Position numbers and translations under genes: made by a program. From Escherichia phage vB_EcoS_HdK1, in the sequence record MK373794.1: 64,000 nucleotides of DNA. One strand, written 5' to 3'. Below the pieces are notes generated by a model. The model had not been told where the DNA came from. It ran no database searches and was given only the letters and a program-made list of their open reading frames with translations. Shown one piece after another: positions 38,363 through 57,260 of this stretch. Each line of letters starts with the position of its first letter. Positions within the stretch are counted from its first letter, which is position 1.

Positions 38363-38977
38363 TTACTTTTTACACGCTTCAAGAAATTCCCGACGCCATG
38401 TGTCACCAGTTACGTCCGGTAATACACCATCACCCAATGCAGTACGTCCGCGGAATGCTTTAGTGATGGTTGAGCTTCCGCATACCTGTTTAATACCGCG
38501 CGACTCCATGCACATATGTTTTGCATCGATGTAGACACACACAGCTTTCGGCTCTAAATGGTCACGGATAGCGTCCGCAATTTGATTAGTCAGACGTTCT
38601 TGGACTTGCAAACGTCGAGCAAAAGCATCAACCACACGAGATAACTTACTAAGGCCAACAATTTTTCCATTCGGGACATACCCGACCACCGCATGACCAA
38701 TAATAGGAGCCATATGATGCTCACAATGACTGTAGACAGGGATATCACGGACGATGACCATTTCATCACAGTTTTCCCCACCATCCTCAAACGTTTTGAA
38801 CAGGGATGCAATATCGACAGAATAACCCCCGAACCACGTTTCAAATGCTTTAGCGACGCGCAATGGAGTTTCAACTAGACCTTCACGCAAGTCATCGCCA
38901 CCTTCAATCAACTTTAAAATCTTTTCGATACTGTGCGAAATTTCTGCTCGGTTTGTCATCTTTGTAAATTCATTCAT
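38363..38977 (-). CDS. folE: GTP cyclohydrolase I
   Basis: Motif HCEHHMAPIIGHAVVGYVPNGKIVGLSKLSRVVDAFARRLQVQERLT; ATG at 38977 with AAGGAAA RBS (ORF-track TTG start at 39013). Confidence 0.85.
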   Translation of the reverse strand: MNEFTKMTNRAEISHSIEKILKLIEGGDDLREGLVETPLRVAKAFETWFGGYSVDIASLFKTFEDGGENCDEMVIVRDIPVYSHCEHHMAPIIGHAVVGYVPNGKIVGLSKLSRVVDAFARRLQVQERLTNQIADAIRDHLEPKAVCVYIDAKHMCMESRGIKQVCGSSTITKAFRGRTALGDGVLPDVTGDTWRREFLEACKK

Positions 38978-39003
38978 GGTTTGCAGTTTCCTTGTGTGGT
39001 CAA

Positions 39004-39540
39004 TTATTTGCAATAGTTAACATGGCATTTAGATGTTTCTTCAATGGTACATTCTACCAGTTCAACACCATATTGGTCAAGCAGTTGAGGACCAATTACG
39101 TCAACCATATATGCAGCTAAGTTTTCCGCAGTTGGGTTGAATGGTAAAGCTACCAAAGAATTAAAGAAAGGATCATAATCTTCATCCGTCACTAAATTGT
39201 TCTCGCGCGCAAACTTAGTCGATGCAACAACAATGAGCGAATTAATCAGGCTGTCTTGTTCCCAATGCAGGAACTTATGATCCCAATTATCTTCCAGCCA
39301 CTGGCAGAGCGTAGTTTTAACCACACTAAAGTCGATAACGCGGCCTACATCGTCCAGGGATCCTTCTAAAGCAAATCCACTTACAGACTTAACGTAACCT
39401 TCCGACAATGTTTTCTTTGGTGCGACTTTAAAATGGAACTTATAGTTGTGACCATGAAGATGGCGACATTTGCTTTCGTGACCTACAACACGATGACCAG
39501 CGCAAATCTCGTGTGTGAAACGAATAACAGTGTAACCCAT
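39004..39540 (-). CDS. queD: 6-carboxy-5,6,7,8-tetrahydropterin synthase (QueD-like), with C-terminal extension
   Basis: Zn-binding motif CAGHRVVGHESKCRHLHGHNY; GAGGAA RBS. Confidence 0.8.
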   Translation of the reverse strand: MGYTVIRFTHEICAGHRVVGHESKCRHLHGHNYKFHFKVAPKKTLSEGYVKSVSGFALEGSLDDVGRVIDFSVVKTTLCQWLEDNWDHKFLHWEQDSLINSLIVVASTKFARENNLVTDEDYDPFFNSLVALPFNPTAENLAAYMVDVIGPQLLDQYGVELVECTIEETSKCHVNYCK

Positions 39541-39542
39541 TT

Positions 39543-40958
39543 TTATTCCTCGTTTTCGTATTTAATAACTTCTTGTGCGTTATTAATATTAAACGCAGTC
39601 CGGCGCATCATGCAAGGGCCACAAGTACCGCAATGCAAATCCCCGTTACGGTAACAGCTCCAGGTGTGCTCCAACGGGGCCCCTAAACGCAGACCTGTAG
39701 CGACAATCTCGTGCTTCATTAAGTTACCTACAGGCATGAGCACTTCAACGCGCTTACCGTCCCCTACAGCGAACGGTAACACCTGATTAAAGCGATTAAT
39801 AAACTCAGGTTCGTTGTCCGGATAGGCTCCAGCTTCTTCTAGGTTGTTACCAAGAACAATATAGTCGAAACCGTTAGCTTCTGCGTATGCAGTAGCAACA
39901 GAAAGCATCACAAGGTTACGAGCTGGAACCCATTCATGCGCGAACTCAGCGCCTTCTTCACCGCCCGCAATTGCAGCATCTTGGTCAAATAACGGGCTAT
40001 CTTTTTTATCGTAAATTGGGATTGGGAATTCAACTAATGGAACTTCCATCACTTCCGCAATTTTACGAATAGCCTTCAACTCGTTAGTTTCTGCACGACA
40101 ACCATACTGGAAGTTAATTAGAGTGACATCTAAACCATTGGACTTACACATTTGAGCTGCTACTGTGCTGTCCATACCACCACTGGCGACAACTAACGCA
40201 CGTTGAGTTTGCTTATTTGGAATAAGATCAACTTCATTACATACATCAGTGGATGTGACCACATTACATGAATAAGGCTTCAGCATTTGCTTAATAGCGC
40301 GTGTTGGTAGCATGTCTTCCTGGCTGGCGAAATACATACCAGTATCAGTCTTACCAATCCAGATTGGACGATAATTACATGCTGTAAACACACATCCCGG
40401 AAAGGAATCATGTGTCGCAAGGATTGCGAAGCTACCTTTTAATTTGCGAACAACTTCATGAAACACACTGTACAGGTAATTAAAGTCAGACAAACACATT
40501 TCATCTGCTGAAAGTGTACATTCCGCTAACTGTTCAACAATCGCAGCACTATCAATCTTAGTCTGTAGGGCATAGGTACGAAGGTCTTTATCGTTCGCAA
40601 TAGTACCGTTATGAACAATAGTCCAACCATCCATATGATACGGTTGCTGGTCCCACTCATTCTTGTCAACGACCCACTCTGTAGTCGGTTCAGCGCGAGC
40701 GTTACCAATCATTGTGAAGCTACCAATAGCTCCAGCATGAGATACAATGCGCCCAACTTTAACAAGACGTTCCAGCGATGTTTTCTTACCGACACTAACA
40801 ATACGTTGCGGGTGCATACTGTGGTCACCATGCGTAAAGCGTACACCAAGACCATCACGACCACGGTTGATACTAGCTTTAATAAGATCCTCAATGTCGT
40901 TACGGATAATAAGACTTTCAGGTTGACCGTTAGTAATAACACCAAAGATAGAGCACAT
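39543..40958 (-). CDS. queC: glutamine amidotransferase (class II) - QueC fusion, 7-cyano-7-deazaguanine synthase-like
   Basis: Starts Met-Cys (MCSIFGV, Ntn amidotransferase); PP-loop VVASGGMDSTVAAQMC; C-terminal Zn motif CGTCGPC; AAGGAAGG RBS. Confidence 0.8.
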   Translation of the reverse strand: MCSIFGVITNGQPESLIIRNDIEDLIKASINRGRDGLGVRFTHGDHSMHPQRIVSVGKKTSLERLVKVGRIVSHAGAIGSFTMIGNARAEPTTEWVVDKNEWDQQPYHMDGWTIVHNGTIANDKDLRTYALQTKIDSAAIVEQLAECTLSADEMCLSDFNYLYSVFHEVVRKLKGSFAILATHDSFPGCVFTACNYRPIWIGKTDTGMYFASQEDMLPTRAIKQMLKPYSCNVVTSTDVCNEVDLIPNKQTQRALVVASGGMDSTVAAQMCKSNGLDVTLINFQYGCRAETNELKAIRKIAEVMEVPLVEFPIPIYDKKDSPLFDQDAAIAGGEEGAEFAHEWVPARNLVMLSVATAYAEANGFDYIVLGNNLEEAGAYPDNEPEFINRFNQVLPFAVGDGKRVEVLMPVGNLMKHEIVATGLRLGAPLEHTWSCYRNGDLHCGTCGPCMMRRTAFNINNAQEVIKYENEE

Positions 40959-40959
40959 A

Positions 40960-41706
40960 TTATTTACCTTCCTTAACCATTTCAATTTCACGCTCAACGG
41001 ATGCAATAATATCGTTGAGGTCTTCCAGTAAGTCTTTATGACCGCGCTCACCCGCACACAGCACTTTCTTCAGTGCATGTTGCATGGGCCCACTGGTTAC
41101 ATTGAATGCTTTAATTACGTCGTACACGTCAACCCATACATCAATTTCAATTGGGCTACCATTAATGTCATGGGATTCAAAAGTTTTAATTTTGCGCATA
41201 TATTTATTCGGACGTGGAGCTTTAATCTCCTGGATACAACCCTTGTCGATAAACGTTTCTTTAATAAATACTTCAGGATTACCTTCTTTGTCACGATCAA
41301 CGTTAAAGACATTCGTAAGTAGATCGTCCATGATACTGGTTAATTTCTGAGTAGACGTCGTATGCTTCACGGTATTCACTTCCTCTTCTGCTTTCTGACT
41401 TCTTCTGGCAGAAGTATTGATACGCCATTTGTAAAGTGCATTACGTGGAGGCGTTACATGCGTGTTGTAGACCGTCTTTAAGTTCATAAGATCGTGTCCA
41501 TCCATACCTTCAACAAAGACAGTGAGTGCAGGGCAACTATCGTTCAGAACATCCACCATATACCCTTCTCGAATCACAGATGCAAGAGCTGCATGGGACG
41601 CAGCCTGAGAAACTGTGGTTACATAATGTTTTACAAATCCGTCTTCATCAAACAGACACTGGTTCAACACATTTTCTGGAACGATTTCACCGAGTAAACT
41701 GAACAT
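40960..41706 (-). CDS. hypothetical protein embedded in the deazaguanine cluster (248 aa)
   Basis: ORF between queE and gat-queC on the same strand, 1-nt spacing to the gat-queC start; no motif recognised. Confidence 0.5.
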   Translation of the reverse strand: MFSLLGEIVPENVLNQCLFDEDGFVKHYVTTVSQAASHAALASVIREGYMVDVLNDSCPALTVFVEGMDGHDLMNLKTVYNTHVTPPRNALYKWRINTSARRSQKAEEEVNTVKHTTSTQKLTSIMDDLLTNVFNVDRDKEGNPEVFIKETFIDKGCIQEIKAPRPNKYMRKIKTFESHDINGSPIEIDVWVDVYDVIKAFNVTSGPMQHALKKVLCAGERGHKDLLEDLNDIIASVEREIEMVKEGK

Positions 41707-41779
41707 ACTTATTCATAATAACCTACCTTATTAGTTGAACATACCATGTCTTCTAGCGTGTGCGTGAGTATGTATAGCT

Positions 41780-42544
41780 TCACTCTACACCTAAATATTT
41801 GTGGATCTGCAATTGCACGATGTAATTGTGCTTCATTGCATATTTAACGACAGCTTGAGCGTTTGCTTTATTAGCATCGTCGTCCTGTTCATCCATAGGT
41901 TGAAGATAAATCTTACCTTTAAAGTGTACAGGCGGACGTGCGATAAATGGTGTCGCACGGTGATCCAGTGCCTGCAACGGTAAACCATCTTCCTCGTTGA
42001 CGTTTCCGCTTTTCATTACATATTTGAAAGCATCCGCTCGAGCGGAAACGCTAGGGTGAACCTTTGCTGCCTTAGGACTACATACTACCACACAGTTATA
42101 GTTGAGTTCACGCGGGATAGGCATAGTTCCGTTAGTTTCAACCTGTACGCGATAACCTTTCATATCAATAAGGTAATTGATAAAATTAGCAACTTCAGGT
42201 TGACGGAAAGGTTCTCCGCCAGTAATGACAACTAAGTTAGTCTTGGCTTCACCAGTAACACGGACAATCTCTTGCCAGATGTCACCGTGATTCATCTTCT
42301 TACGATTGGACGTGTAGTTTGTATCACATCCTGGGCATTGCAAATTACAACCAGCTAATCGAACAAACACGGCAGGTTGACCACAAAACGGGCCTTCGCC
42401 TTGAATGGTATGAAAAATGGAATGCACGTCAAGAATACCACGTTCACGAACTAACTTCTCAGGTTCCTGAGTATTAATAATTTTCATATGATTTCCAAAT
42501 TTGGCTTGAGCCCAGTGGTGGGCGATAATGGCTTGTGCAAACAT
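41780..42544 (-). CDS. queE: 7-carboxy-7-deazaguanine synthase (radical SAM QueE)
   Basis: Motifs IQGEGPFCGQPAVFVRLAGCNLQCPGCDT and VITGGEP; start uncertain (ATG at 42544 or 42487; ORF-track TTG at 42568). Confidence 0.8.
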   Translation of the reverse strand: MFAQAIIAHHWAQAKFGNHMKIINTQEPEKLVRERGILDVHSIFHTIQGEGPFCGQPAVFVRLAGCNLQCPGCDTNYTSNRKKMNHGDIWQEIVRVTGEAKTNLVVITGGEPFRQPEVANFINYLIDMKGYRVQVETNGTMPIPRELNYNCVVVCSPKAAKVHPSVSARADAFKYVMKSGNVNEEDGLPLQALDHRATPFIARPPVHFKGKIYLQPMDEQDDDANKANAQAVVKYAMKHNYIVQLQIHKYLGVE

Positions 42545-42612
42545 TTGAACCTCGGGGTAAGATAACAAAGGGGCAGTAAATGCCCCTTCTGAGTTTCCGA
42601 AGTATCTACAGA

Positions 42613-44139: not shown

Positions 44140-44337
44140 CTAACGGGAAAGAACTACAGAACTTTCGCTACAGCATAGAATTCCATACTCATGAAGACGT
44201 TGAAAGTTTGGATGTTTGGCTAATACCTGCATCCGATCGTAATCAATTAAGACGTACATATTAATCCTTCCACCATTCGGGCCCACAATACATTCCACGT
44301 AGTTCTTCACGCATGTAATTTTCAAACTCGTCTTCAA
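44140..44337 (-). CDS. hypothetical protein, N-terminal fragment of frameshifted gene 43535..44337
   Basis: MYVLIDYDRMQVLAKHPNFQRLHEYGILCCSE then stop; continuation in another frame. Confidence 0.4.
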   Translation of the reverse strand: MKTSLKITCVKNYVECIVGPNGGRINMYVLIDYDRMQVLAKHPNFQRLHEYGILCCSESSVVLSR

Positions 44338-44500
44338 TATTGATTACTTGACTTTCGTGAAAAACTGCTACACCATGAATAAATCGTTTAGCTCTTTCTC
44401 CTTTAATTACACCGTAACCTAACGCCTCCCACTCTTTAAAAGTCTTCCATTCACCATCTTCCGGTGAATAGTCGTCACTTCTAAACGTCATCTTTGCCAT
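44261..44500 (-). CDS. hypothetical small protein (79 aa)
   Basis: ATG at 44500 with GAGG RBS, just downstream of the helicase stop (ORF-track version extends to 44668). Confidence 0.45.
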   Translation of the reverse strand: MAKMTFRSDDYSPEDGEWKTFKEWEALGYGVIKGERAKRFIHGVAVFHESQVINIEDEFENYMREELRGMYCGPEWWKD

Positions 44501-44507
44501 ATAAGCC

Positions 44508-46511
44508 TCAAAACGGAATGTCGTCATCAAAGTCTGGTGGTAGTTCTTTACCGTTACCAGTAAGAATAGGTTGATTAGACGTAGAATGCAATACTGTCGT
44601 ACGGGAATCAGTCTGCTCATCTTCATCAAACTTATTCGTATAACTTCCACCAAACTGGGACAGACCATTCATTGCTGCAATTTGTACAACCGGACGTTCG
44701 TTTGTTGCTTCTTTCTTACCGAATTCACTACCATCATAGCAACTATTCAACACTTCGGGGAACTTACCCTTCAAGTTGACATATATGTGCGTCGGTACAC
44801 GAAGCTGGCTGACCACATTGAGTGCTTCGTCAATGTTAGCTGGGATTGCCAAGCTGCAATGCTCGCGCCACCAGTTACGCGCTTTCTTACCTGCAAAGCC
44901 GGTATGGAACAGGCAAATATATTGTTGAATAGTTTGTGAGCCACAAAGATAGTCCACGCGAAGTGTCGGTGGCTTAGAACGGTCACCCCTGTTCTCGTGG
45001 CGGTAGTAACTCACCATATCAACTTTCAATACCTCAGTGACTGGTAAATCATTCTTGATAATAGCTTTCGTACTAGCACTCGCCATTAGTTTCTTCTCAA
45101 AAGTAAACTCATGACCGCAATAACCAGCACGGCACGCTTTATTATTCGTAATGGTATAACCTAATCCTTGCAGATAGAGTATTTCTTCATGTGACATGCT
45201 ACTTGTGTCGAATGGTTTTAACCCACCACAGAAGCGAACTGACGCATGGTTCCATGTTTTACATATTGGGCATTCCTTAACAGGTGCAGCGGATTTTCCT
45301 TTCTGCCCTGGACGCTTAGGAATAACAGGGTCATTAATAGGCCCAAGGCGCCTTGTGTTACCTGCATAATCCAATACAAGACAGTTCTGTTTATGCGAAG
45401 CGGAGATAGCTTGCAAACGACCCTCTGTTGTGGTCAAATCAAAACCATCTGCATAATCAGGTCGTGTACCACGTCCAAGCATCTGAACCCACAAACGGGA
45501 AGATTGAGATGGTCGCATACCAATTATCAAGTCAAGTCCTGGATGGTCAAAGCCTGTCGTTAATACGTTGTTGTTTGCTATTGCCTGTAAACGACCAGCT
45601 TTAAAATCAATAAGATACTGGTCACGCAAGGCTTTCGGTGTATCACCAGTTACAACTTCACAACTAATACCGCGCTCGTTGAGGTAGTCCTTGACATCTT
45701 TTGCATGGTCTACACCAGCACAAAAGACAAGCCAACTCATTCTATTCTCTTCTTCCGCAATACTAATCGCATCATCTAATAAATGGCGAGTTACATCAGG
45801 ATCGTTTACAACCTTTTGAAGCTCACTTTCAATGAACTCACCGCCTCGAGTATGAACACCACTTACATCATACTCTTTCTTTGTTTTACGTGGTACTAAC
45901 GGAACAAGATAACCCTCATCAATGAACCAGTTGAAGCACTCTACGGTACATGCGTTAAATACGATTTCATCAAATAAAGCATTAGGCGCATAATCATCTT
46001 TGATAATAGAACCAAAACCAAGACGCCAACTCGTAGCAGTAAGACCGATAATCTTTAGATATGGATTCTTTTCACGAATGTGCGCAAAGAACTTCTGGTA
46101 ACTTGTTTGTTGATTTGGGCTAATAAGGTCACATTCGTCAACTATAATAATATCAACGTCCTCAAAGTATTTAGCTTGTTTTGCAACAGACTGAATACCC
46201 GCGAACGTTATCATTGCGTTCTTATCTTTGCGGCCCATACCAGCACTATAAATACCAGTCGGTGCTTCAGGCCACAACTTCTTAAATTTATCGTGGTTCT
46301 GGTCTATCAATTCTTTTACGTGAGTAATTACCATCATGCGGGTACTACCCCAATTATCGTGAATTGTCTTTAATAGACCAGCAATTACAAGGGACTTACC
46401 AGTCCCTGTAGGCAACAAGATAACAGGATTTCCTGACTTTTCACCATGCTTGATGAAATAGCGCAATGTACTGTTTACAGCTTCTTGCTGATAATCACGT
46501 AGTTTGAACAT
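44508..46511 (-). CDS. superfamily 2 DNA helicase (DExD-box) with zinc-finger and SSB-like acidic C-terminal tip
   Basis: Motif I LLPTGTGKS; motif II IIVDECD; motif VI QMLGRGTR; CPICKTW...FCGG zinc finger; C-terminus ...PPDFDDDIPF. Confidence 0.8.
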   Translation of the reverse strand: MFKLRDYQQEAVNSTLRYFIKHGEKSGNPVILLPTGTGKSLVIAGLLKTIHDNWGSTRMMVITHVKELIDQNHDKFKKLWPEAPTGIYSAGMGRKDKNAMITFAGIQSVAKQAKYFEDVDIIIVDECDLISPNQQTSYQKFFAHIREKNPYLKIIGLTATSWRLGFGSIIKDDYAPNALFDEIVFNACTVECFNWFIDEGYLVPLVPRKTKKEYDVSGVHTRGGEFIESELQKVVNDPDVTRHLLDDAISIAEEENRMSWLVFCAGVDHAKDVKDYLNERGISCEVVTGDTPKALRDQYLIDFKAGRLQAIANNNVLTTGFDHPGLDLIIGMRPSQSSRLWVQMLGRGTRPDYADGFDLTTTEGRLQAISASHKQNCLVLDYAGNTRRLGPINDPVIPKRPGQKGKSAAPVKECPICKTWNHASVRFCGGLKPFDTSSMSHEEILYLQGLGYTITNNKACRAGYCGHEFTFEKKLMASASTKAIIKNDLPVTEVLKVDMVSYYRHENRGDRSKPPTLRVDYLCGSQTIQQYICLFHTGFAGKKARNWWREHCSLAIPANIDEALNVVSQLRVPTHIYVNLKGKFPEVLNSCYDGSEFGKKEATNERPVVQIAAMNGLSQFGGSYTNKFDEDEQTDSRTTVLHSTSNQPILTGNGKELPPDFDDDIPF

Positions 46512-47462
46512 TTACTCACCGTAATAATCTGCTGCTTCGTATTGACCACATGCTGCCATTTGATCTTCCTTCGTTAACACACCTTCGGTTCCATCGGTGA
46601 TGTATGCAGTAGCAGAAGCTACTTTGATTGCGCATCTCCAGGTTCCATCTTCAAGCGGATAAGAGTGCTTACAGGTGCGGCAGTTAACTTCAGGCATTTT
46701 GTTGTTATGGCACACCGCTTTGTGGTCACACCATTTGCATTTATAGTAAGATTTACTTTCATTGATCTTAGGTGGTGGGCATTCCGCCAGTGCAATTACA
46801 AATCCACGGTCTTTGTAGCGTTCTGCTGTTTCTTTATCAAACGGTACAAGCTCTGCCCAAATCTCGTCCGTGTTCTTATTAACTGCAATATAAAGAGCGG
46901 CTGGGAGTCCATAATACAACATGTATTCCTGCATCTGAACATAGTGCTCCCATTTGGATTCCATCACACCATTAACGACAAGTTTCTTGAACGAATCGTT
47001 ATTGTGCGTTTTCATCTCCGTTAAGATTGGTGTAGAAGGTTGTGGCATGTCAGGACAACCAATGACAATACCATCTATCGCGGAACCAAAGTGCCCGTTG
47101 AGATAGCTGACTCTATACTGGCTGCCATTTTCGTCTTGTTGGATGACTTGCATACCGGCGGTAAGTAATAAGGCCACGAAGCGACCTTCTTCAAGATGCC
47201 CGCGATTGAATAGACGTAAGGTCTTACCGTTAAAGTGTGGTTTTGTTGCCCATCGCCATCCGTAGAAGATTGCTCTGCTACACTCCTGCCCGATAAGACT
47301 AATCCCAAGATGCGAACGGAATCCGCCATCCCCCTCTCGATATGCGTCTTCAATATGCGGTAATACTTTTCCGAGCCATACTCTGTAAGCGGATCCTTGA
47401 TCTCGTTCAATACAGTCATTGAATAACTCCATTGTCTTAGTAGCAGGATAAAAATGTGGCAT
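46512..47462 (-). CDS. RecB/Cas4-like PD-(D/E)xK exonuclease with C-terminal Cys cluster (putative)
   Basis: D...EMK nuclease-like motif (AIDGIV...ILTEMKTH); four-Cys cluster CKWCDHKAVCHNNKMPEVNCRTC. Confidence 0.45.
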   Translation of the reverse strand: MPHFYPATKTMELFNDCIERDQGSAYRVWLGKVLPHIEDAYREGDGGFRSHLGISLIGQECSRAIFYGWRWATKPHFNGKTLRLFNRGHLEEGRFVALLLTAGMQVIQQDENGSQYRVSYLNGHFGSAIDGIVIGCPDMPQPSTPILTEMKTHNNDSFKKLVVNGVMESKWEHYVQMQEYMLYYGLPAALYIAVNKNTDEIWAELVPFDKETAERYKDRGFVIALAECPPPKINESKSYYKCKWCDHKAVCHNNKMPEVNCRTCKHSYPLEDGTWRCAIKVASATAYITDGTEGVLTKEDQMAACGQYEAADYYGE

Positions 47463-47524: not shown

Positions 47525-48445
47525 TTACTGTGCAGCGTCATCGCCTTCGGTGGAACGTTTCCACGGTGGAGTCTTGGTCTGAGCTGCTTTAGCGATATCG
47601 TCCTGGACTTCAGGTTCTGCATGGTTAGCAGTACCAGTGTTCTGAGCTTGAGTTTGCGGTTGCTCCGCTCCAGGCTGTACCTGCTGAGTTGCCCAGTTAG
47701 GCTGCTGTGTGGCTTGTTGCTGCGGCTGCTGCGCACCAGTAGCCCACGGTTGAGATTGTGCCGCGCTGTTAAAATCAACTGTTCCAGACTGCTGCTGTTG
47801 CTGTACCGGCTGCTGCGGCTGTTGTTGCTGCTGCGGCTGCTGGAACCCCTGAGTCTGAGGTTGTTGCTGCTGTTGCTGCGGCTGCTGCCCAAATGCGCCC
47901 GGGAAACCCTGCTGCGGTTGCTGCTGTTGTTGCTGAGCACCACCGAACGCACCGCCACCAAATGCTGGGGATTGTGCTGCCGCTGCCGGAGTTGATTTAG
48001 GCAGGTTAGCCATATCCGCCTTAGTTGCGTATACAACACCTTCCATATTATCAATTGCTTGATAAATCTGAGGTTCGTTGTTTGGCTCATAGCCGGGTTG
48101 CTGACGAACTTTCACTTTCAGGTTAAACGGGATACCGTGCAGTTGTTCAGTATCGTTCCAGACTGGAACTTTAACAGCACGAGACAGCTCTGCCAGTTCT
48201 TCCATTGCAATCTGTACAGCGACAGGGTTCGCGTTCTTGACGTTGTAACCGCCAAACATTACACGACCAGCAAAATCACCCTGCATAATCTTAAACTGAA
48301 GATTCAGACGCGCACCGCCTGGAGTTTTAGTCGGTTTGATTTCAGAGTTTACAATCTGAACAACATACCAACCAGCGGGCATCAAGCTGTTGTGTTGACG
48401 CTCTGCGTGTTGTCCAGCGTTAAATTGCATTCCTAAACCGGCCAT
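47525..48445 (-). CDS. single-stranded DNA-binding protein-like, with Gln/Pro-rich low-complexity tail (putative)
   Basis: About 130-aa N-terminal domain followed by a Q/G/P-rich linker; next to the Sak4-like ATPase gene; lacks the canonical acidic tip. Confidence 0.35.
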   Translation of the reverse strand: MAGLGMQFNAGQHAERQHNSLMPAGWYVVQIVNSEIKPTKTPGGARLNLQFKIMQGDFAGRVMFGGYNVKNANPVAVQIAMEELAELSRAVKVPVWNDTEQLHGIPFNLKVKVRQQPGYEPNNEPQIYQAIDNMEGVVYATKADMANLPKSTPAAAAQSPAFGGGAFGGAQQQQQQPQQGFPGAFGQQPQQQQQQPQTQGFQQPQQQQQPQQPVQQQQQSGTVDFNSAAQSQPWATGAQQPQQQATQQPNWATQQVQPGAEQPQTQAQNTGTANHAEPEVQDDIAKAAQTKTPPWKRSTEGDDAAQ

Positions 48446-48466: not shown

Positions 48467-49195
48467 TTAATGATTGCACCGAGATGTGGATATTCCATCT
48501 GTTCTAACGAACGAACCAGAACGATCTTTACATACATTTGACAGATCTGGTCTTGTCAGCAGATAACGAAAATCTGCTTGAGTATTTTGGTCTTTACCAA
48601 CACTAATCTTGAACACTTCGTCAAAAAAGTATGGTAATTCTGGACCTAATTTTGCACCAGGCATAGAAGGACCATAAGACGTAATACCTGTTAACTCGTC
48701 CTTATTACGGGACATTTTAGCTGCCATGTATACGTTAAGTCCAGGGATATCTCGAAAAGCACGAACCAACGTTTGCATCTTCTCAATGAGATCCCCATAA
48801 GCCTGACGCGGATCCTTTACAGTACGCTTCGCATTGTTAAGGCACTTTTCAGCAATCTCAGTAAGTGAATCCAGCGCAAGAGATTGAAAGCGCGGTAAAC
48901 CATCTTCACCTACAGGATTGTTTGCAGGATTAGTTGCCCAAACATAAGCCTGCTCCACATCCTGGATATTTTCAACCGTGATGGTTGGAATATCGTAACA
49001 GATATCTGGTCTGTTTTCACCAAACACACGAGCAATGTTATTCGGTGTTAAAGACAGAAGCCCAGACTCTGCAGAAATCAGCAACGGTCTTGGAAGAGTT
49101 GCTGTAAGCATGGTCTTACCCATACCGGATTCACCATACACAAGCATCTTGACACCAGTGTCCAAAACTGCCTGCGCGGTAGTTGTAAATTGCAT
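48467..49195 (-). CDS. Sak4-like RecA-family ATPase (recombination)
   Basis: Walker A VYGESGMGKT near the N-terminus; size about 240 aa; adjacent to the SSB-like gene. Confidence 0.6.
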   Translation of the reverse strand: MQFTTTAQAVLDTGVKMLVYGESGMGKTMLTATLPRPLLISAESGLLSLTPNNIARVFGENRPDICYDIPTITVENIQDVEQAYVWATNPANNPVGEDGLPRFQSLALDSLTEIAEKCLNNAKRTVKDPRQAYGDLIEKMQTLVRAFRDIPGLNVYMAAKMSRNKDELTGITSYGPSMPGAKLGPELPYFFDEVFKISVGKDQNTQADFRYLLTRPDLSNVCKDRSGSFVRTDGISTSRCNH

Positions 49196-54669: not shown

Positions 54670-54696
54670 ATGGGCGCATATAGCGCCCATTTTTTA
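54670..54696. terminator. bidirectional Rho-independent terminator
   Basis: Stem atgggcgc / gcgcccat (54670..54677 and 54683..54690) followed by TTTTTT on the plus strand and T-rich sequence on the minus strand. Confidence 0.55.
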
Positions 54697-55746
54697 TAAC
54701 TTAATAACTTCGTTCATTCTCTCAATATCTACCAAATAACACTTCATTCTCGGTGGTGTAAACTCTGCGCCGAAGAAATTTGAAAAGTCCATTGGCCTCA
54801 TCTCGGTAAGAACTTCCATAGACATCAAACCATAGATTGTATTGTCTATGACCTGTAGGATGTTGTCATTTCTTGTCTGTTTAAAAGCCTTGAACTGGCG
54901 ACATACTGTGCATAGATCACTCCTTGTGACAATAAATGCGTCCTTAAACATGGGAAACCGTTTATATACACCAGCTTTAACTTCACCATCCAAGAACTTC
55001 TTAATGGAGTTCAGCATTATCTTCTCACGACTTGTACTGTCCGTAGAACCAATCTGCCCACTGTTACGCTTCTCTAAGAAACGCTCGTTACCCTGATCGA
55101 TAAATGACTCAGCCCAACGATAATGTTCCATAGTGACAACAGGACGCTCACTGTTATCTGCAACAGCAAGAAGAGAAGCTATACGCAATACCTTCAACGC
55201 CTTCCTTGTGTACATCTGACGAATTACTTCGTCTTGCACCTGCTCACCATCATTGCCGCTGTTCAGGAACTTCGCAACAATATTATCAAGATTATCAAAC
55301 GCTTCGTGTACCTCTGCTTCCATTTCAACATAACACGGAGCAGTCCCTGACATAATACGCACAGCTTGTTTATAGATAGCTCCAATAGTGCGCAGTATTG
55401 CTTCTGGATATTCCAGGAGCATACTCTTATTCATCAATGGGCGGTTAGCTGTACATTCCCATGCGATAATACGGGACATGAAACCACTCGACATCATGCG
55501 GTCATCTACGTTCCCGTAAAATTCATCTGGTGTTGTTTCACCTGCAAAACTATACGCCTTAACCTTACCGCCAGCAGTCGTATTATCTTTACTAGAGTGC
55601 TTTGAACCACCAGAGAAAGCATAGAAATGCCCCTTGTCATAAAGGGAAAGCATTTCATCCATAATGTCTTTAGCTTTACCGACTTCCATCTTACCGTTAC
55701 GGAAAAAATGCACCGACTTCAGTCTTATAGTTAATGGATGAGCCAC
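54694..55746 (-). CDS. primase-polymerase / helicase-like replication protein, C-terminal fragment (multiply frameshifted gene spanning 54694..57260)
   Basis: 350-aa ORF continuous in sequence with upstream fragments; frame break next to an 8-A homopolymer at about 55881..55888. Confidence 0.45.
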   Translation of the reverse strand: MAHPLTIRLKSVHFFRNGKMEVGKAKDIMDEMLSLYDKGHFYAFSGGSKHSSKDNTTAGGKVKAYSFAGETTPDEFYGNVDDRMMSSGFMSRIIAWECTANRPLMNKSMLLEYPEAILRTIGAIYKQAVRIMSGTAPCYVEMEAEVHEAFDNLDNIVAKFLNSGNDGEQVQDEVIRQMYTRKALKVLRIASLLAVADNSERPVVTMEHYRWAESFIDQGNERFLEKRNSGQIGSTDSTSREKIMLNSIKKFLDGEVKAGVYKRFPMFKDAFIVTRSDLCTVCRQFKAFKQTRNDNILQVIDNTIYGLMSMEVLTEMRPMDFSNFFGAEFTPPRMKCYLVDIERMNEVIKL

Positions 55747-55767
55747 AAGACATAACGGACGTATCCA

Positions 55768-56352
55768 TTATGACATCCTTGCGCAATGCAGCATCAGACG
55801 CATAGGTACTTGTATCCAAGACACGTTCGATACCAAATATCTGCTGACCGTCTTGACCGCCATAATTGGATACTTGAGAAAAAAAAGAATAGTTTCAATG
55901 TTGGAGCGAAACGCTTCTTTACCAATACCAGAACGTGCAATTAGTACAAAGTAGTTATTCAAACCACTTCGTGTGACTGTGTTCCACGCCTTACCGCACA
56001 TACCACTAAATAAAGCAAGCGCAGACAGAATACTAATGTCTTTAATAGGCAACAAGCTCGCTTTATACATATTACGCGCAACCTCGCCCATAAAGCCCGG
56101 AGGCCAAGCCAAACCGTCTGCCTGCTCTTCAGTGTAATTACCATCTGTAGTCAACACTTCTTCAGGTGGGCGTTCTGGTGTAGTTGCTTGACGTAGTTTT
56201 TCCGTGCGCTCTATAGCTGCATTAACGTTATTCTGAACTATCTGCATAAGTCCCATAGATTTAACATGGGCATCGTAGCGATAGTTGCGAATCATTCTAT
56301 CCAGGTGGTACGGACGTTTAATTTTTTCACCAGGCATACGACGGGGAATCAT
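55768..56352 (-). CDS. primase-polymerase / helicase-like protein, central fragment
   Basis: Segment ...NYFVLIARSGIGKEAF then out-of-frame tail; overlaps the upstream fragment in another frame. Confidence 0.4.
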   Translation of the reverse strand: MIPRRMPGEKIKRPYHLDRMIRNYRYDAHVKSMGLMQIVQNNVNAAIERTEKLRQATTPERPPEEVLTTDGNYTEEQADGLAWPPGFMGEVARNMYKASLLPIKDISILSALALFSGMCGKAWNTVTRSGLNNYFVLIARSGIGKEAFRSNIETILFFLKYPIMAVKTVSRYLVSNVSWIQVPMRLMLHCARMS

Positions 56353-56474
56353 CGTAACGGCTACTCATTGGTGAATACATGAATAGACGTCTTACCTGGA
56401 AATTGTACTTACTCTTAAAGCAAAGAAAGTCAATTAATGCAAATTCTGCTTCAGACTGAGAAGGGAAACAACGT

Positions 56475-56855
56475 TCACCGATTAGAAGTATCAACTTCTT
56501 CAGCTCTCCAACGACCCTCCCATAGCTGCTTAAACAATGTTCCGTTTTCTTGTTCGCACAACTGAATATAGACATCCTGGTCTTCCATTGCATATGGGTC
56601 GTTACTAAAATCTTCTTCAGTAAGTTCCAGCATTTGGAAGCCATCAGACTCATTAATCTCACTCATCTCAGACATAAGTTGGATGAATGAGATTAGCGAT
56701 ATACCCTTCGCTTTCACTGCCTGGAGCACCAGACACAGTGCGCGGGAGTAAAGTAACATCCCAGTGATCCCCTGTACAGATAATAAAACGATACTGGGAA
56801 TACACTTCCACACCGTCACGGCGCTTACCAGCCTGAGGGGATGGAATAAATCCAT
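56475..56855 (-). CDS. primase-polymerase-like protein, internal fragments (at least 3 frames used between 56327 and 56871)
   Basis: Protein-like segments alternate between frames, e.g. TEISRSGDGLHTWIYSIPSGW then AGKRRDGVEVYSQYRFII then SEMSEINESDGFQMLELTEEDF. Confidence 0.35.
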   Translation of the reverse strand: MDLFHPLRLVSAVTVWKCIPSIVLLSVQGITGMLLYSRALCLVLQAVKAKGISLISFIQLMSEMSEINESDGFQMLELTEEDFSNDPYAMEDQDVYIQLCEQENGTLFKQLWEGRWRAEEVDTSNR

Positions 56856-56894
56856 GTGTGCAACCCATCACCGCTTCTGGAAATTTCCGTATAG

Positions 56895-57260
56895 CTATGG
56901 AAACGATTCAACAATCTTCTTATATCGCTCACCAGCAACTTTCTTTTCCATTTCAGACATGGTATCTTTAATGTCCATGTCGATACAACAGAACGGGTCA
57001 CTTGGAAGTAGATAGAAACCTAAACGCAAGTTATGACCAATCTCGTTATAATAACGAACGCAGCGTTCAGCATCTTCAAAAGACATAAGTAAATGCAGGT
57101 TAGACGGTTTCTTATCATTACCGTCTTTACGAAGTGGGACCATATCCCCTAAATCATCGTCCCATACATAAGGTTGTTTTTCTGATGATGTACCCGGATG
57201 GAAACCGCAGACAGCCCACTGTTCGTATTGTTTAATTTCTTGAGGAAAAAGTTCCAGCAT
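56895..57260 (-). CDS. primase-polymerase (AEP superfamily) N-terminal fragment
   Basis: Prim-pol-like pattern EQWAVCGF...KKP...LMSFEDAER...GHNLRLGFYLLPSDPFCCIDMDIKD (DxD motif); downstream SGDGLHTW motif in a shifted frame. Confidence 0.5.
   Translation of the reverse strand: MLELFPQEIKQYEQWAVCGFHPGTSSEKQPYVWDDDLGDMVPLRKDGNDKKPSNLHLLMSFEDAERCVRYYNEIGHNLRLGFYLLPSDPFCCIDMDIKDTMSEMEKKVAGERYKKIVESFP

Follow-up and report, generated by a model that had tools for sequence, protein, structure and literature searches.

Escherichia phage vB_EcoS_HdK1 (MK373794.1) is a Nonagvirus, one of the 9g/JenP1-like siphoviruses of E. coli, and the 64,000-nucleotide stretch of its DNA analyzed here is referred to as the window. 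Our subject is a helicase gene in this window and the short peptide with which its product ends, a peptide identical to the C-terminal tip of SSB, the E. coli protein that binds single-stranded DNA. The gene occupies positions 44508..46511 of the minus strand, including the stop codon, encodes 667 amino acids (aa), and lies in a region with 97% nucleotide identity to phages HdSG1 and JenP1. Its ATG directly follows the stop codon of the upstream gene, and its TGA is at 44510..44508. The open reading frame (ORF) matches the Pfam families ResIII (1.7e-21), DEAD (2.3e-13), and Helicase_C (1.5e-12), as a superfamily 2 (SF2) helicase would, and was assigned to phrog_16, DNA helicase (3.3e-99).

A phmmer search of the Protein Data Bank (PDB) returned E. 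coli RadD (6JDE/7R7J) first, with E=9.5e-65 over helicase residues 2-388; the runner-up scored 1.6e-14. The two RecA-like motor domains, RD1 and RD2 (aa 1-392; 45336..46511, minus strand), are 37% identical to those of E. coli RadD by BLASTP (E=6e-74). As in RadD (YejH; PDB 6JDE, 7R7J, 8H5Y), the motor is followed by a zinc-ribbon region and a C-terminal domain (aa 393-614; 44670..45335, minus strand), which were recognized from invariant alignment columns, from AlphaFold2 (AF2), and from Foldseek; C414, C417, C428, and C465 are invariant in the family alignment. The AF2 model, built with 84 homologs, has a mean predicted local distance difference test score (pLDDT) of 86.8, with most of residues 1-614 above 90 and the loop 473-487 below 50. 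Foldseek aligned this model with the RadD structures 8H5Y, 6JDE, and 7R7J at E=1e-35 over ~640 columns that include the zinc ribbon and the C-terminal domain. The template modeling (TM) scores were only 0.45-0.53, low values for a full-length match that probably arise from differing domain orientations. We conclude that the helicase is a full-length RadD homolog with an added disordered tail of ~53 residues that includes the tip. It also resembles RadD in being encoded beside RecA-like and nuclease functions. In contrast, E. coli RadD ends in ...AHELRG, without tail or tip, and RadD reads the SSB tip whereas the phage protein displays it. Several homologs (P0032, P0127, P0130, P0141, P0168, P0176, and others) are far longer than 667 aa (800-1583 aa); in P0032 (995 aa), Hint and LAGLIDADG domains (PF14528, PF05203, PF05204) represent inteins within the motor domains.

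The helicase ends in ...NGKELPPDFDDDIPF, immediately followed by the stop codon, and E. coli K-12 SSB ends in ...SNEPPMDFDDDIPF. The two proteins agree in all of their last eight residues and in 10 of their last 12. The shared octapeptide, DFDDDIPF (aa 660-667; 44511..44534, minus strand), was defined by translation and by its conservation in the family. An earlier note on this DNA had reported an SF2 helicase ending in the E. coli SSB tip at 44508-44560; Pfam and the translation bear this out, and the interval corresponds to the stop codon plus the last 17 codons. The note was right about the SF2 class, but missed both the homology to RadD and the interchangeable placement of the tip on a helicase, a small zinc protein, or a clamp that is described below.

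The ending has the properties of the bacterial SSB C-terminal motif (SSB-Ct), namely an acidic run and then [ILV]-P-F, which forms the very C-terminus and leaves the carboxylate free, and, as in SSB, it is presented on a disordered, hypervariable linker. This linker (aa 615-659; 44535..44669, minus strand) was delimited by AF2 and by its hypervariability in homologs; residues 615-667 have a pLDDT of ~30, and the modeled tail is undocked from the helicase body. What differs is the carrier, which is an SF2 helicase (in relatives, a beta-clamp homolog or a small four-cysteine protein) and not an oligomeric, single-stranded DNA-binding protein with the oligonucleotide/oligosaccharide-binding (OB) fold of the SSB tetramer. 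Moreover, each helicase chain has one tip, and its linker is not rich in Gly, Gln, or Pro. A scan of all six frames of the window showed that no other ORF has an acidic-[IVL]PF terminus. The linker also contains a second conserved patch, SYTNKFDEDE (aa 623-632; window 44616-44645, minus strand), which reads Y[TV]N[KQ][YF]DEDD in relatives from the enterobacterial-phage subclade and N[IV]YD[DR][DE][ND]HE in another group of homologs (P0017-P0043, 46-51% identity). This patch may be a second short linear motif.

Endings were counted in the best 120 homologs, which share 44-99% identity with the window helicase. PF terminates 116 of these proteins, with IPF in 95 and VPF in 20; DDDIPF is found in 49 and the complete DFDDDIPF in 13. 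Positional entropy among homologs is 0.14-0.9 bits at positions -1, -2, -3, and -5, 1.4 bits at -4, and 2.2 bits at -6, compared with ~3.8 bits across the 20 residues before the tip. The linker itself varies in length from 7 to 104 residues (median 40). Six homologs contain an additional, internal copy of the motif, which reads D[DN]IPF in five cases. The closest relatives (P0002, P0003, P0005, P0006) end in PMDFDDDIPF and thus match E. coli SSB at 10 of 10 positions. Across the family the logo is D-[FLM]-D-D-D-[IV]-P-F, which equals the proteobacterial SSB-Ct logo and recurs in three to four carrier proteins and in helicases of only 38-50% identity; among cultured phages, it is seen in NP1 of Pseudomonas (...YADLDDDIPF) and MMDA13 of Sphingomonas (...DDLDDDIPF), for example. 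These patterns point to strong purifying selection on the tip alone, within a tail whose linker is hypervariable. Because the tip is conserved throughout the family at the end of a disordered, hypervariable tether, we consider it functional, and we hold with high confidence that it is a protein-docking motif.

To place these counts in a wider frame, 29 of 150 helicase cluster representatives (19%), an unbiased sample of 38-52% identity, carry an [IVLM]P[FYW] tip. On a crude neighbor-joining tree, the 28 tip-bearers among 129 representatives need at least 16 state changes, versus 25.6 when the trait is shuffled. Monophyly of the tip-bearing helicases was rejected on this basis, and the trait appears to be clustered yet repeatedly gained or lost, the tree being too crude to say more. 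The helicase of Pseudomonas phage Iggy (L173, 2507-4255) has the linker and ends in ...PADTEGYF, an acidic and aromatic terminus that is more T7-like than SSB-like.

More distant homologs stop right after the C-terminal domain (...YPEIM...) and have neither linker nor tip. Such tip-less helicases are found in Vibrio 033B, RcSpartan, Synechococcus Yong-L2-223, Erwinia AH03, a Rosemountvirus, and many metagenomic contigs, and at such loci three other kinds of protein were found to carry a tip. The first is a four-cysteine protein of 60-125 aa, phrog_23504, encoded directly downstream of the tip-less helicase (L004 7742-7957; L006 7637-7867; L003 7721-7966; L002 7646-7873; further loci are L014-L016, L022-L024, L098-L111, and others). 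Its members follow the pattern CxNC...C...PP...C...[DE][IV]PF-COOH, and all have the [DE][IV]PF end, as in AH03 (...NNDDIPF), Yong-L2-223 (...EDNEDIPF), and 033B (...QIDIPF). The second carrier, a different protein of ~74 aa encoded in high-GC contigs, ends in ...EVPF or ...GMPF; a related 76-aa ORF ends in ...DDPPF. The third is a beta-clamp-like DNA polymerase processivity factor (phrog_947) with a C-terminal extension, and the helicases accompanying it are tip-less. Tip-bearing clamps (L005 7665-8894, in RcSpartan; L145 5649-6830; L136 6630-7736; L123 3180-4247; L114 6945-8012) end in DDEIPF, DDDIPF, or DDIPF, for example ...DPDDEIPF in RcSpartan and ...DMDDDIPF in L136 and L145.

The distribution of these carriers was surveyed at 91 loci, with tip-bearing helicase loci counted only when enough downstream sequence was available (n=17). 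A second tip-bearing ORF was seen at none of these 17 loci and at 38 of 73 tip-less loci (Fisher p=4.7e-5). The tips at the 38 loci are on phrog_23504 proteins (26), the second small protein (8), and clamps (4). By chance, ~6.5 tip endings would be expected among the 6716 ORFs scanned, and about as many obviously spurious ones were seen. The carriers are thus mutually exclusive, and the tip would be a portable device supplied once per module.

We also considered whether the helicase tail arose by fusion with a phrog_23504 gene. No sign of such an origin was seen: a hidden Markov model (HMM) of 29 mini-proteins reached a best E of 0.086, from the tip alone, and the CxxC..C..C pattern is absent from 270 helicase tails. 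The phrog_23504 HMM found no homolog in the window or in JenP1 (best E=0.38), and a homolog search with the 76-aa AH03 mini-protein gave only three matches, the word index being limiting. The tip is the first functional clue to this uncharacterized phage protein family. A similar cysteine pattern occurs at the C-terminus of the Cas4-like exonucleases; the phrog_23504 HMM matched the Cas4 ORF of L097 (E=1.5e-4), and one phrog_23504 mini-protein matched phrog_1990 (Cas4-type exonuclease).

Our tentative reading, which may well hold, is that the tip is a portable mimic of the SSB tip, serving to dock host SSB-interacting proteins and to recruit them to the phage replication/recombination machinery. 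The free ...D-D-D-I-P-F carboxy-terminus would insert into the hydrophobic, basic-rimmed pockets of these proteins, and the helicase would be a hub to which partners are recruited at phage forks, gaps, and D-loops, beside a Sak4-like ATPase, a DUF669-type SSB, and a Cas4-like nuclease. The phage's own SSB would be unable to recruit host SSB-interacting proteins because it has a different tip. The likeliest host receptors would be the chi subunit of the clamp loader, exonuclease I (ExoI), RecQ, PriA, RecJ/RecO, topoisomerase III, and RNase HI. SSB-binding sites have been solved on ExoI, RecO, RecQ, chi, PriA, PriC, and RNase HI (cited in PMC10238739), and the phage tip constitutes the last eight residues of the assayed SSB-Ct peptide WMDFDDDIPF. 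We infer binding by the tip, the identity of its partners, and recruitment rather than inhibition from these sequence comparisons.

Two patterns are consistent with a host receptor. First, the logo stays at the bacterial consensus across different carriers and very divergent phages, as it should if the tip fits a host pocket that evolves slowly. Second, the tip may track the host. Acinetobacter phage HD01, the only one in the clade, ends in ...GEDDLPF, and its nearest metagenomic relative (L094, GC 40%) ends in ...DDDDLPF; the chromosomal SSB of A. baumannii ends in ...ADLDDDLPF. The nearest cultured relatives of HD01, which are Pseudomonas phages (58% identity), end in ...DLDDDIPF. Leucine at -3 is otherwise rare, occurring in 1 of the 120 homologs and in 3 of the 29 tip-bearing representatives. 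The chromosomal A. baumannii ssb was read from complete chromosomes filed as plasmids in PLSDB (L171, NZ_CP064203.1, and others, 3.6-4.1 Mb); an E. coli SSB query of this plasmid collection gave enterobacterial matches only, and a second query reached the A. baumannii chromosomes. Matches in GTDB genomes were mostly phage contigs binned into metagenome-assembled genomes, where host labels are unreliable, and these labels were not used for host tracking.

Several observations weigh against a host receptor. The host tracking is suggestive, as it concerns a single lineage and leucine at -3 also occurs in ~3% of other tips. Seuratvirus helicases, from CAjan-like phages of E. coli, have a tip that is not the host sequence (...DDPDYVPF in P0015, which shares 98.8% identity with the CAjan helicase across residues 1-640); the tip therefore need not copy the host strictly. 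In many phrog_23504 proteins, the tip contains just one acidic residue (LGEIPF, QMEIPF), and ~30 of the 73 tip-less loci have no tip on neighboring proteins within flanks of 4-8 kb. Polymerase, clamp, primase, ligase, and nucleases are all phage-encoded according to the JenP1 annotation, and the need for a host factor is not obvious. Finally, by analogy with T7 gp4, all of the carriers (helicase, clamp, and the small protein encoded between them) could plausibly touch the phage polymerase.

A more specific form of the host-receptor reading, prompted by the tips found on clamps, concerns the clamp loader. The host clamp loader reads the SSB tip via its chi subunit, and in the 42 kb of JenP1 examined a clamp is annotated and a clamp loader is not. 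The tip might then be a host-SSB cassette, placed on exactly one replisome protein (helicase, sliding clamp, or small four-cysteine adaptor), that captures the host clamp loader via chi or engages another SSB-Ct reader. We regard this version as possible but unlikely, and would say the same of its extension to the large group of siphoviruses that share a module of Sak4, DUF669, Cas4, RadD-like helicase, beta-clamp, and Pol A. If it were true, a phage with a clamp but no annotated clamp loader would get its clamp loaded at phage primer termini, and the SSB-reading role of cellular RadD would have been inverted into that of a displayer.

Alternatively, the receptor could be encoded by the phage. 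The tail would then tether the helicase (elsewhere the clamp or small zinc protein) to the phage polymerase, the Sak4-like ATPase, or the DUF669 SSB, and the likeness to host SSB would reflect convergence on a generic ligand made of an acidic run and PF-COOH. We consider this possible, if doubtful. The candidate receptors are all encoded in the window on the minus strand: the DNA polymerase (34368..36341; end ...LEKLAYAA, no tip) and the Sak4-like RecA-core ATPase (AAA_24; 48467..49195), assigned from the JenP1 annotation together with translation and Pfam, respectively, and the DUF669 SSB (47525..48445; Pfam DUF669; phrog_6015, 3.5e-98), which has a Q/P-rich linker and ends in ...TPPWKRSTEGDDAAQ, with no host-type tip. 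Every tip carrier belongs to one conserved replication/recombination module (Sak4, SSB, Cas4, helicase, in some cases a small protein, clamp, polymerase), which fits a partner within that module, and the Seuratvirus tips, unlike that of the host, would also be accounted for. In addition, Sak4 is a RecA-core protein, and E. coli RadD is reported to cooperate with RecA, accelerating RecA-dependent strand exchange (PMC8887467).

Two phage systems provide precedents for a receptor of this kind. In phage T7, the acidic tail of the helicase gp4 binds the polymerase gp5, and its removal lowers processivity (PMC12593628). The window helicase shares with gp4 a flexible, acidic tail with an aromatic end that resembles an SSB tail (for T7, that of its SSB, gp2.5) and that would tether proteins at the fork. 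However, gp4 is a hexameric SF4 (DnaB-like) helicase-primase, whereas the window protein has an SF2/RadD fold and the primase-helicase of JenP1 is a separate gene; moreover, the gp4 tail is a mimic of the T7 SSB and has the T7 polymerase as its partner, whereas the tail described here mimics host SSB. In phage HK620, the last six residues of the DUF669 SSB, NDYPPF, are needed for binding of the cognate Sak4 and for annealase stimulation (Hutinet et al. 2018, PMC5928155). HK620 likewise has a Sak4-like ATPase beside a DUF669 SSB and uses an xPF-type C-terminal tail as a docking motif. There, however, it is the SSB that carries the motif, whose sequence is not that of the host, whereas the window DUF669 protein ends in ...PPWKRSTEGDDAAQ and the host-type tip is on the helicase.

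The DUF669 protein of the window bears on this comparison in two ways. It has an SSB-like, Q/P/G-rich linker of ~150 residues and the C-terminus ...TKTPPWKRSTEGDDAAQ, with a PPW motif 14 residues before the end; since this motif lies short of the C-terminus itself, only the helicase presents a free xPF-COOH. The DUF669 proteins of RcSpartan, AH03, 033B, Yong-L2-223, HD01, and the Rosemountvirus likewise have PPW or PW near the C-terminus and no DDDIPF, and the PPW motif is probably the counterpart of the HK620 NDYPPF tail. Two tail codes therefore seem to run in the module, with the phage SSB using PP[WF] and the helicase, clamp, or mini-protein using that of bacterial SSB. Given that the phage SSB carries a separate PPW motif, DDDIPF is not simply the phage's own SSB code. 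An interacting pair internal to the phage could also co-evolve away from the bacterial consensus, as DUF669 has with PPW, yet the logo stays at D-D-D-I-P-F. The switch from I to L in the Acinetobacter phage matches the host SSB, and close relatives of the window helicase are identical to E. coli SSB over 10 residues. These three points all favor a host receptor over one encoded by the phage.

The earlier note had proposed that the tip might either dock onto the partners of host SSB or compete with SSB for them, and we find the second half of this proposal less plausible. A decoy or inhibitor would fill the SSB-Ct pockets of host enzymes that endanger phage DNA or work in host replication (ExoI, RecQ, RecJ, PriA, chi) in competition with host SSB, a role for which an ending identical to SSB-Ct would be well suited. 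SSB is abundant, far more so than the helicase is likely to be, and the reported affinities of SSB-Ct peptides are micromolar. The helicase furthermore offers one tip per chain whereas the SSB tetramer offers four, and a dedicated inhibitor would need neither a seat on a helicase, clamp, or zinc protein nor to be present exactly once per module. We therefore judge this role to be quite improbable.

Links of related proteins to bacterial defense provide some support for a decoy. Bas52_0087, a phage SSB-like protein with a host-type FDDDIPF tip, is a trigger of DRT10 and was proposed to interfere with SSB partners such as ExoI/SbcB (bioRxiv 10.64898/2026.04.29.721553); its carrier is an OB-fold protein, whereas that of the window is a helicase. 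Heli22, a 658-aa SF2 helicase of the BASEL Seuratvirus Bas22, triggers Retron-Eco11, and a 658-aa helicase is reported in both Nonagvirus and Seuratvirus (NAR 2025, PMC12746101). The accessible part of that report treats Heli22 as a UvsW/D10-like trigger and leaves its C-terminal tip unmentioned. Heli22 is of the same family as the window protein, to which the 658-aa homologs P0013-P0015 are 56% identical, with the difference that Seuratvirus tips read ...DDPD[FY]VPF.

A further alternative is that the tail acts in cis or between helicase subunits, folding onto the protein's own DNA-binding surface or a RadD-type pocket and bringing about auto-inhibition or self-activation of the ATPase. The precedent is RadD itself, whose RD1 domain has a pocket, bordered by R21, R49, and R145, that binds WMDFDDDIPF with a dissociation constant of ~5 uM; SSB-Ct stimulates the RadD ATPase ~3-fold, and reversing the charge of any of these arginines alone abolishes both tip binding and SSB stimulation (PMC10238739). 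In the phage family, the equivalents of the pocket residues T16, L17, F20, L44, L113, and L147 are mostly hydrophobic, and the R145 position (phage position 153) is K or R in 84 of 84 sequences. The R21 equivalent (phage position 20), however, is E/A/D/Q/R/I, mostly E/A/D/Q, and that of R49 (phage position 56) is N/G/S/T, in a part of the alignment made uncertain by a 5-residue insertion. One of the three arginines is thus kept, and the other two are lost in tip-bearing and tip-less phage homologs alike, which weakens the idea of a reader pocket with its own ligand. Subject to the uncertainty at R49, the phage protein looks like a RadD without the canonical reader pocket and with an acquired ligand. 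Docking of the tail in cis also finds no support in the AF2 model, where the tail stays undocked at a pLDDT of ~30. Lastly, action in cis would leave the tip on a clamp or on a separate small protein without explanation, and we consider it very improbable.

That the match arose by chance, or that the 3' end of host ssb was captured recently and has no function, is refuted for practical purposes by the family-wide conservation: although 22 of the 24 tip nucleotides are the same as in E. coli ssb, both differences are synonymous, similarity is confined to these 24 nucleotides with unrelated DNA upstream, the tip is ancient in the family and kept in helicases down to 38-50% identity from Pseudomonas and Sphingomonas phages, Acinetobacter phages, and metagenomes, and we estimate from typical residue frequencies that a random protein would end in DFDDDIPF with a chance of ~3e-11.

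The SSB C-terminal tip is the central address label of bacterial genome maintenance, with at least 17 readers in E. coli, and is an antibacterial target. Such tips are already known on host, plasmid, and phage SSBs, and the tail of T7 gp4 is a known analog. We found no description in the searchable literature of phage helicases, clamps, or mini-proteins that end in a host-type SSB tip, or of tips placed in a mutually exclusive way. If host proteins are the receptors, phages can connect their machinery directly to the SSB interactome of the host while bypassing SSB. The tip also offers an easily testable approach to the coupling between the host and the replication/recombination module of 9g/CAjan/NP1-like phages (Queuovirinae and relatives), and it may bear on why such helicases and tip-bearing phage SSB-like proteins trigger retron and DRT defense.

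The remaining neighbors of the helicase gene are also on the minus strand. Immediately upstream is a Cas4-domain exonuclease (46512..47462; phrog_1990, 7.9e-115; JenP1 annotation). Directly downstream is a small ORF of 79 aa (44261..44500), which phrog and HMM comparisons place in phrog_24889 and not in phrog_23504. This ORF occupies the position of the tip-bearing mini-protein in other phages and has a weak match to the ArdC N-terminal single-stranded DNA-binding domain (PF08401, E=3.7e-4, under the gathering score). The beta-clamp-like processivity factor (36338..37330), identified from the JenP1 annotation and translation, ends in ...GVIVGFRL and has no tip.

Two other regions of the window deserve mention. 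The single 850-aa DNA primase gene of JenP1 corresponds to a broken region (54694-57260, minus strand) with ORFs at 56895-57260, 56475-56855, 55768-56352, and 54694-55746, a pattern suggestive of frameshifts, due to a pseudogene or to errors in sequencing, or of an unusually structured gene. Between the helicase gene and the clamp and polymerase genes lies a 7-deazaguanine (queuosine/archaeosine-type) DNA-modification cluster (37430-42568, minus strand), which includes a Gat-QueC fusion (39543-41057) and a QueE-like radical SAM enzyme (41780-42568). Farther on are QueD, FolE, and a tRNA-guanine-transglycosylase-like DpdA, an arrangement typical of Queuovirinae.

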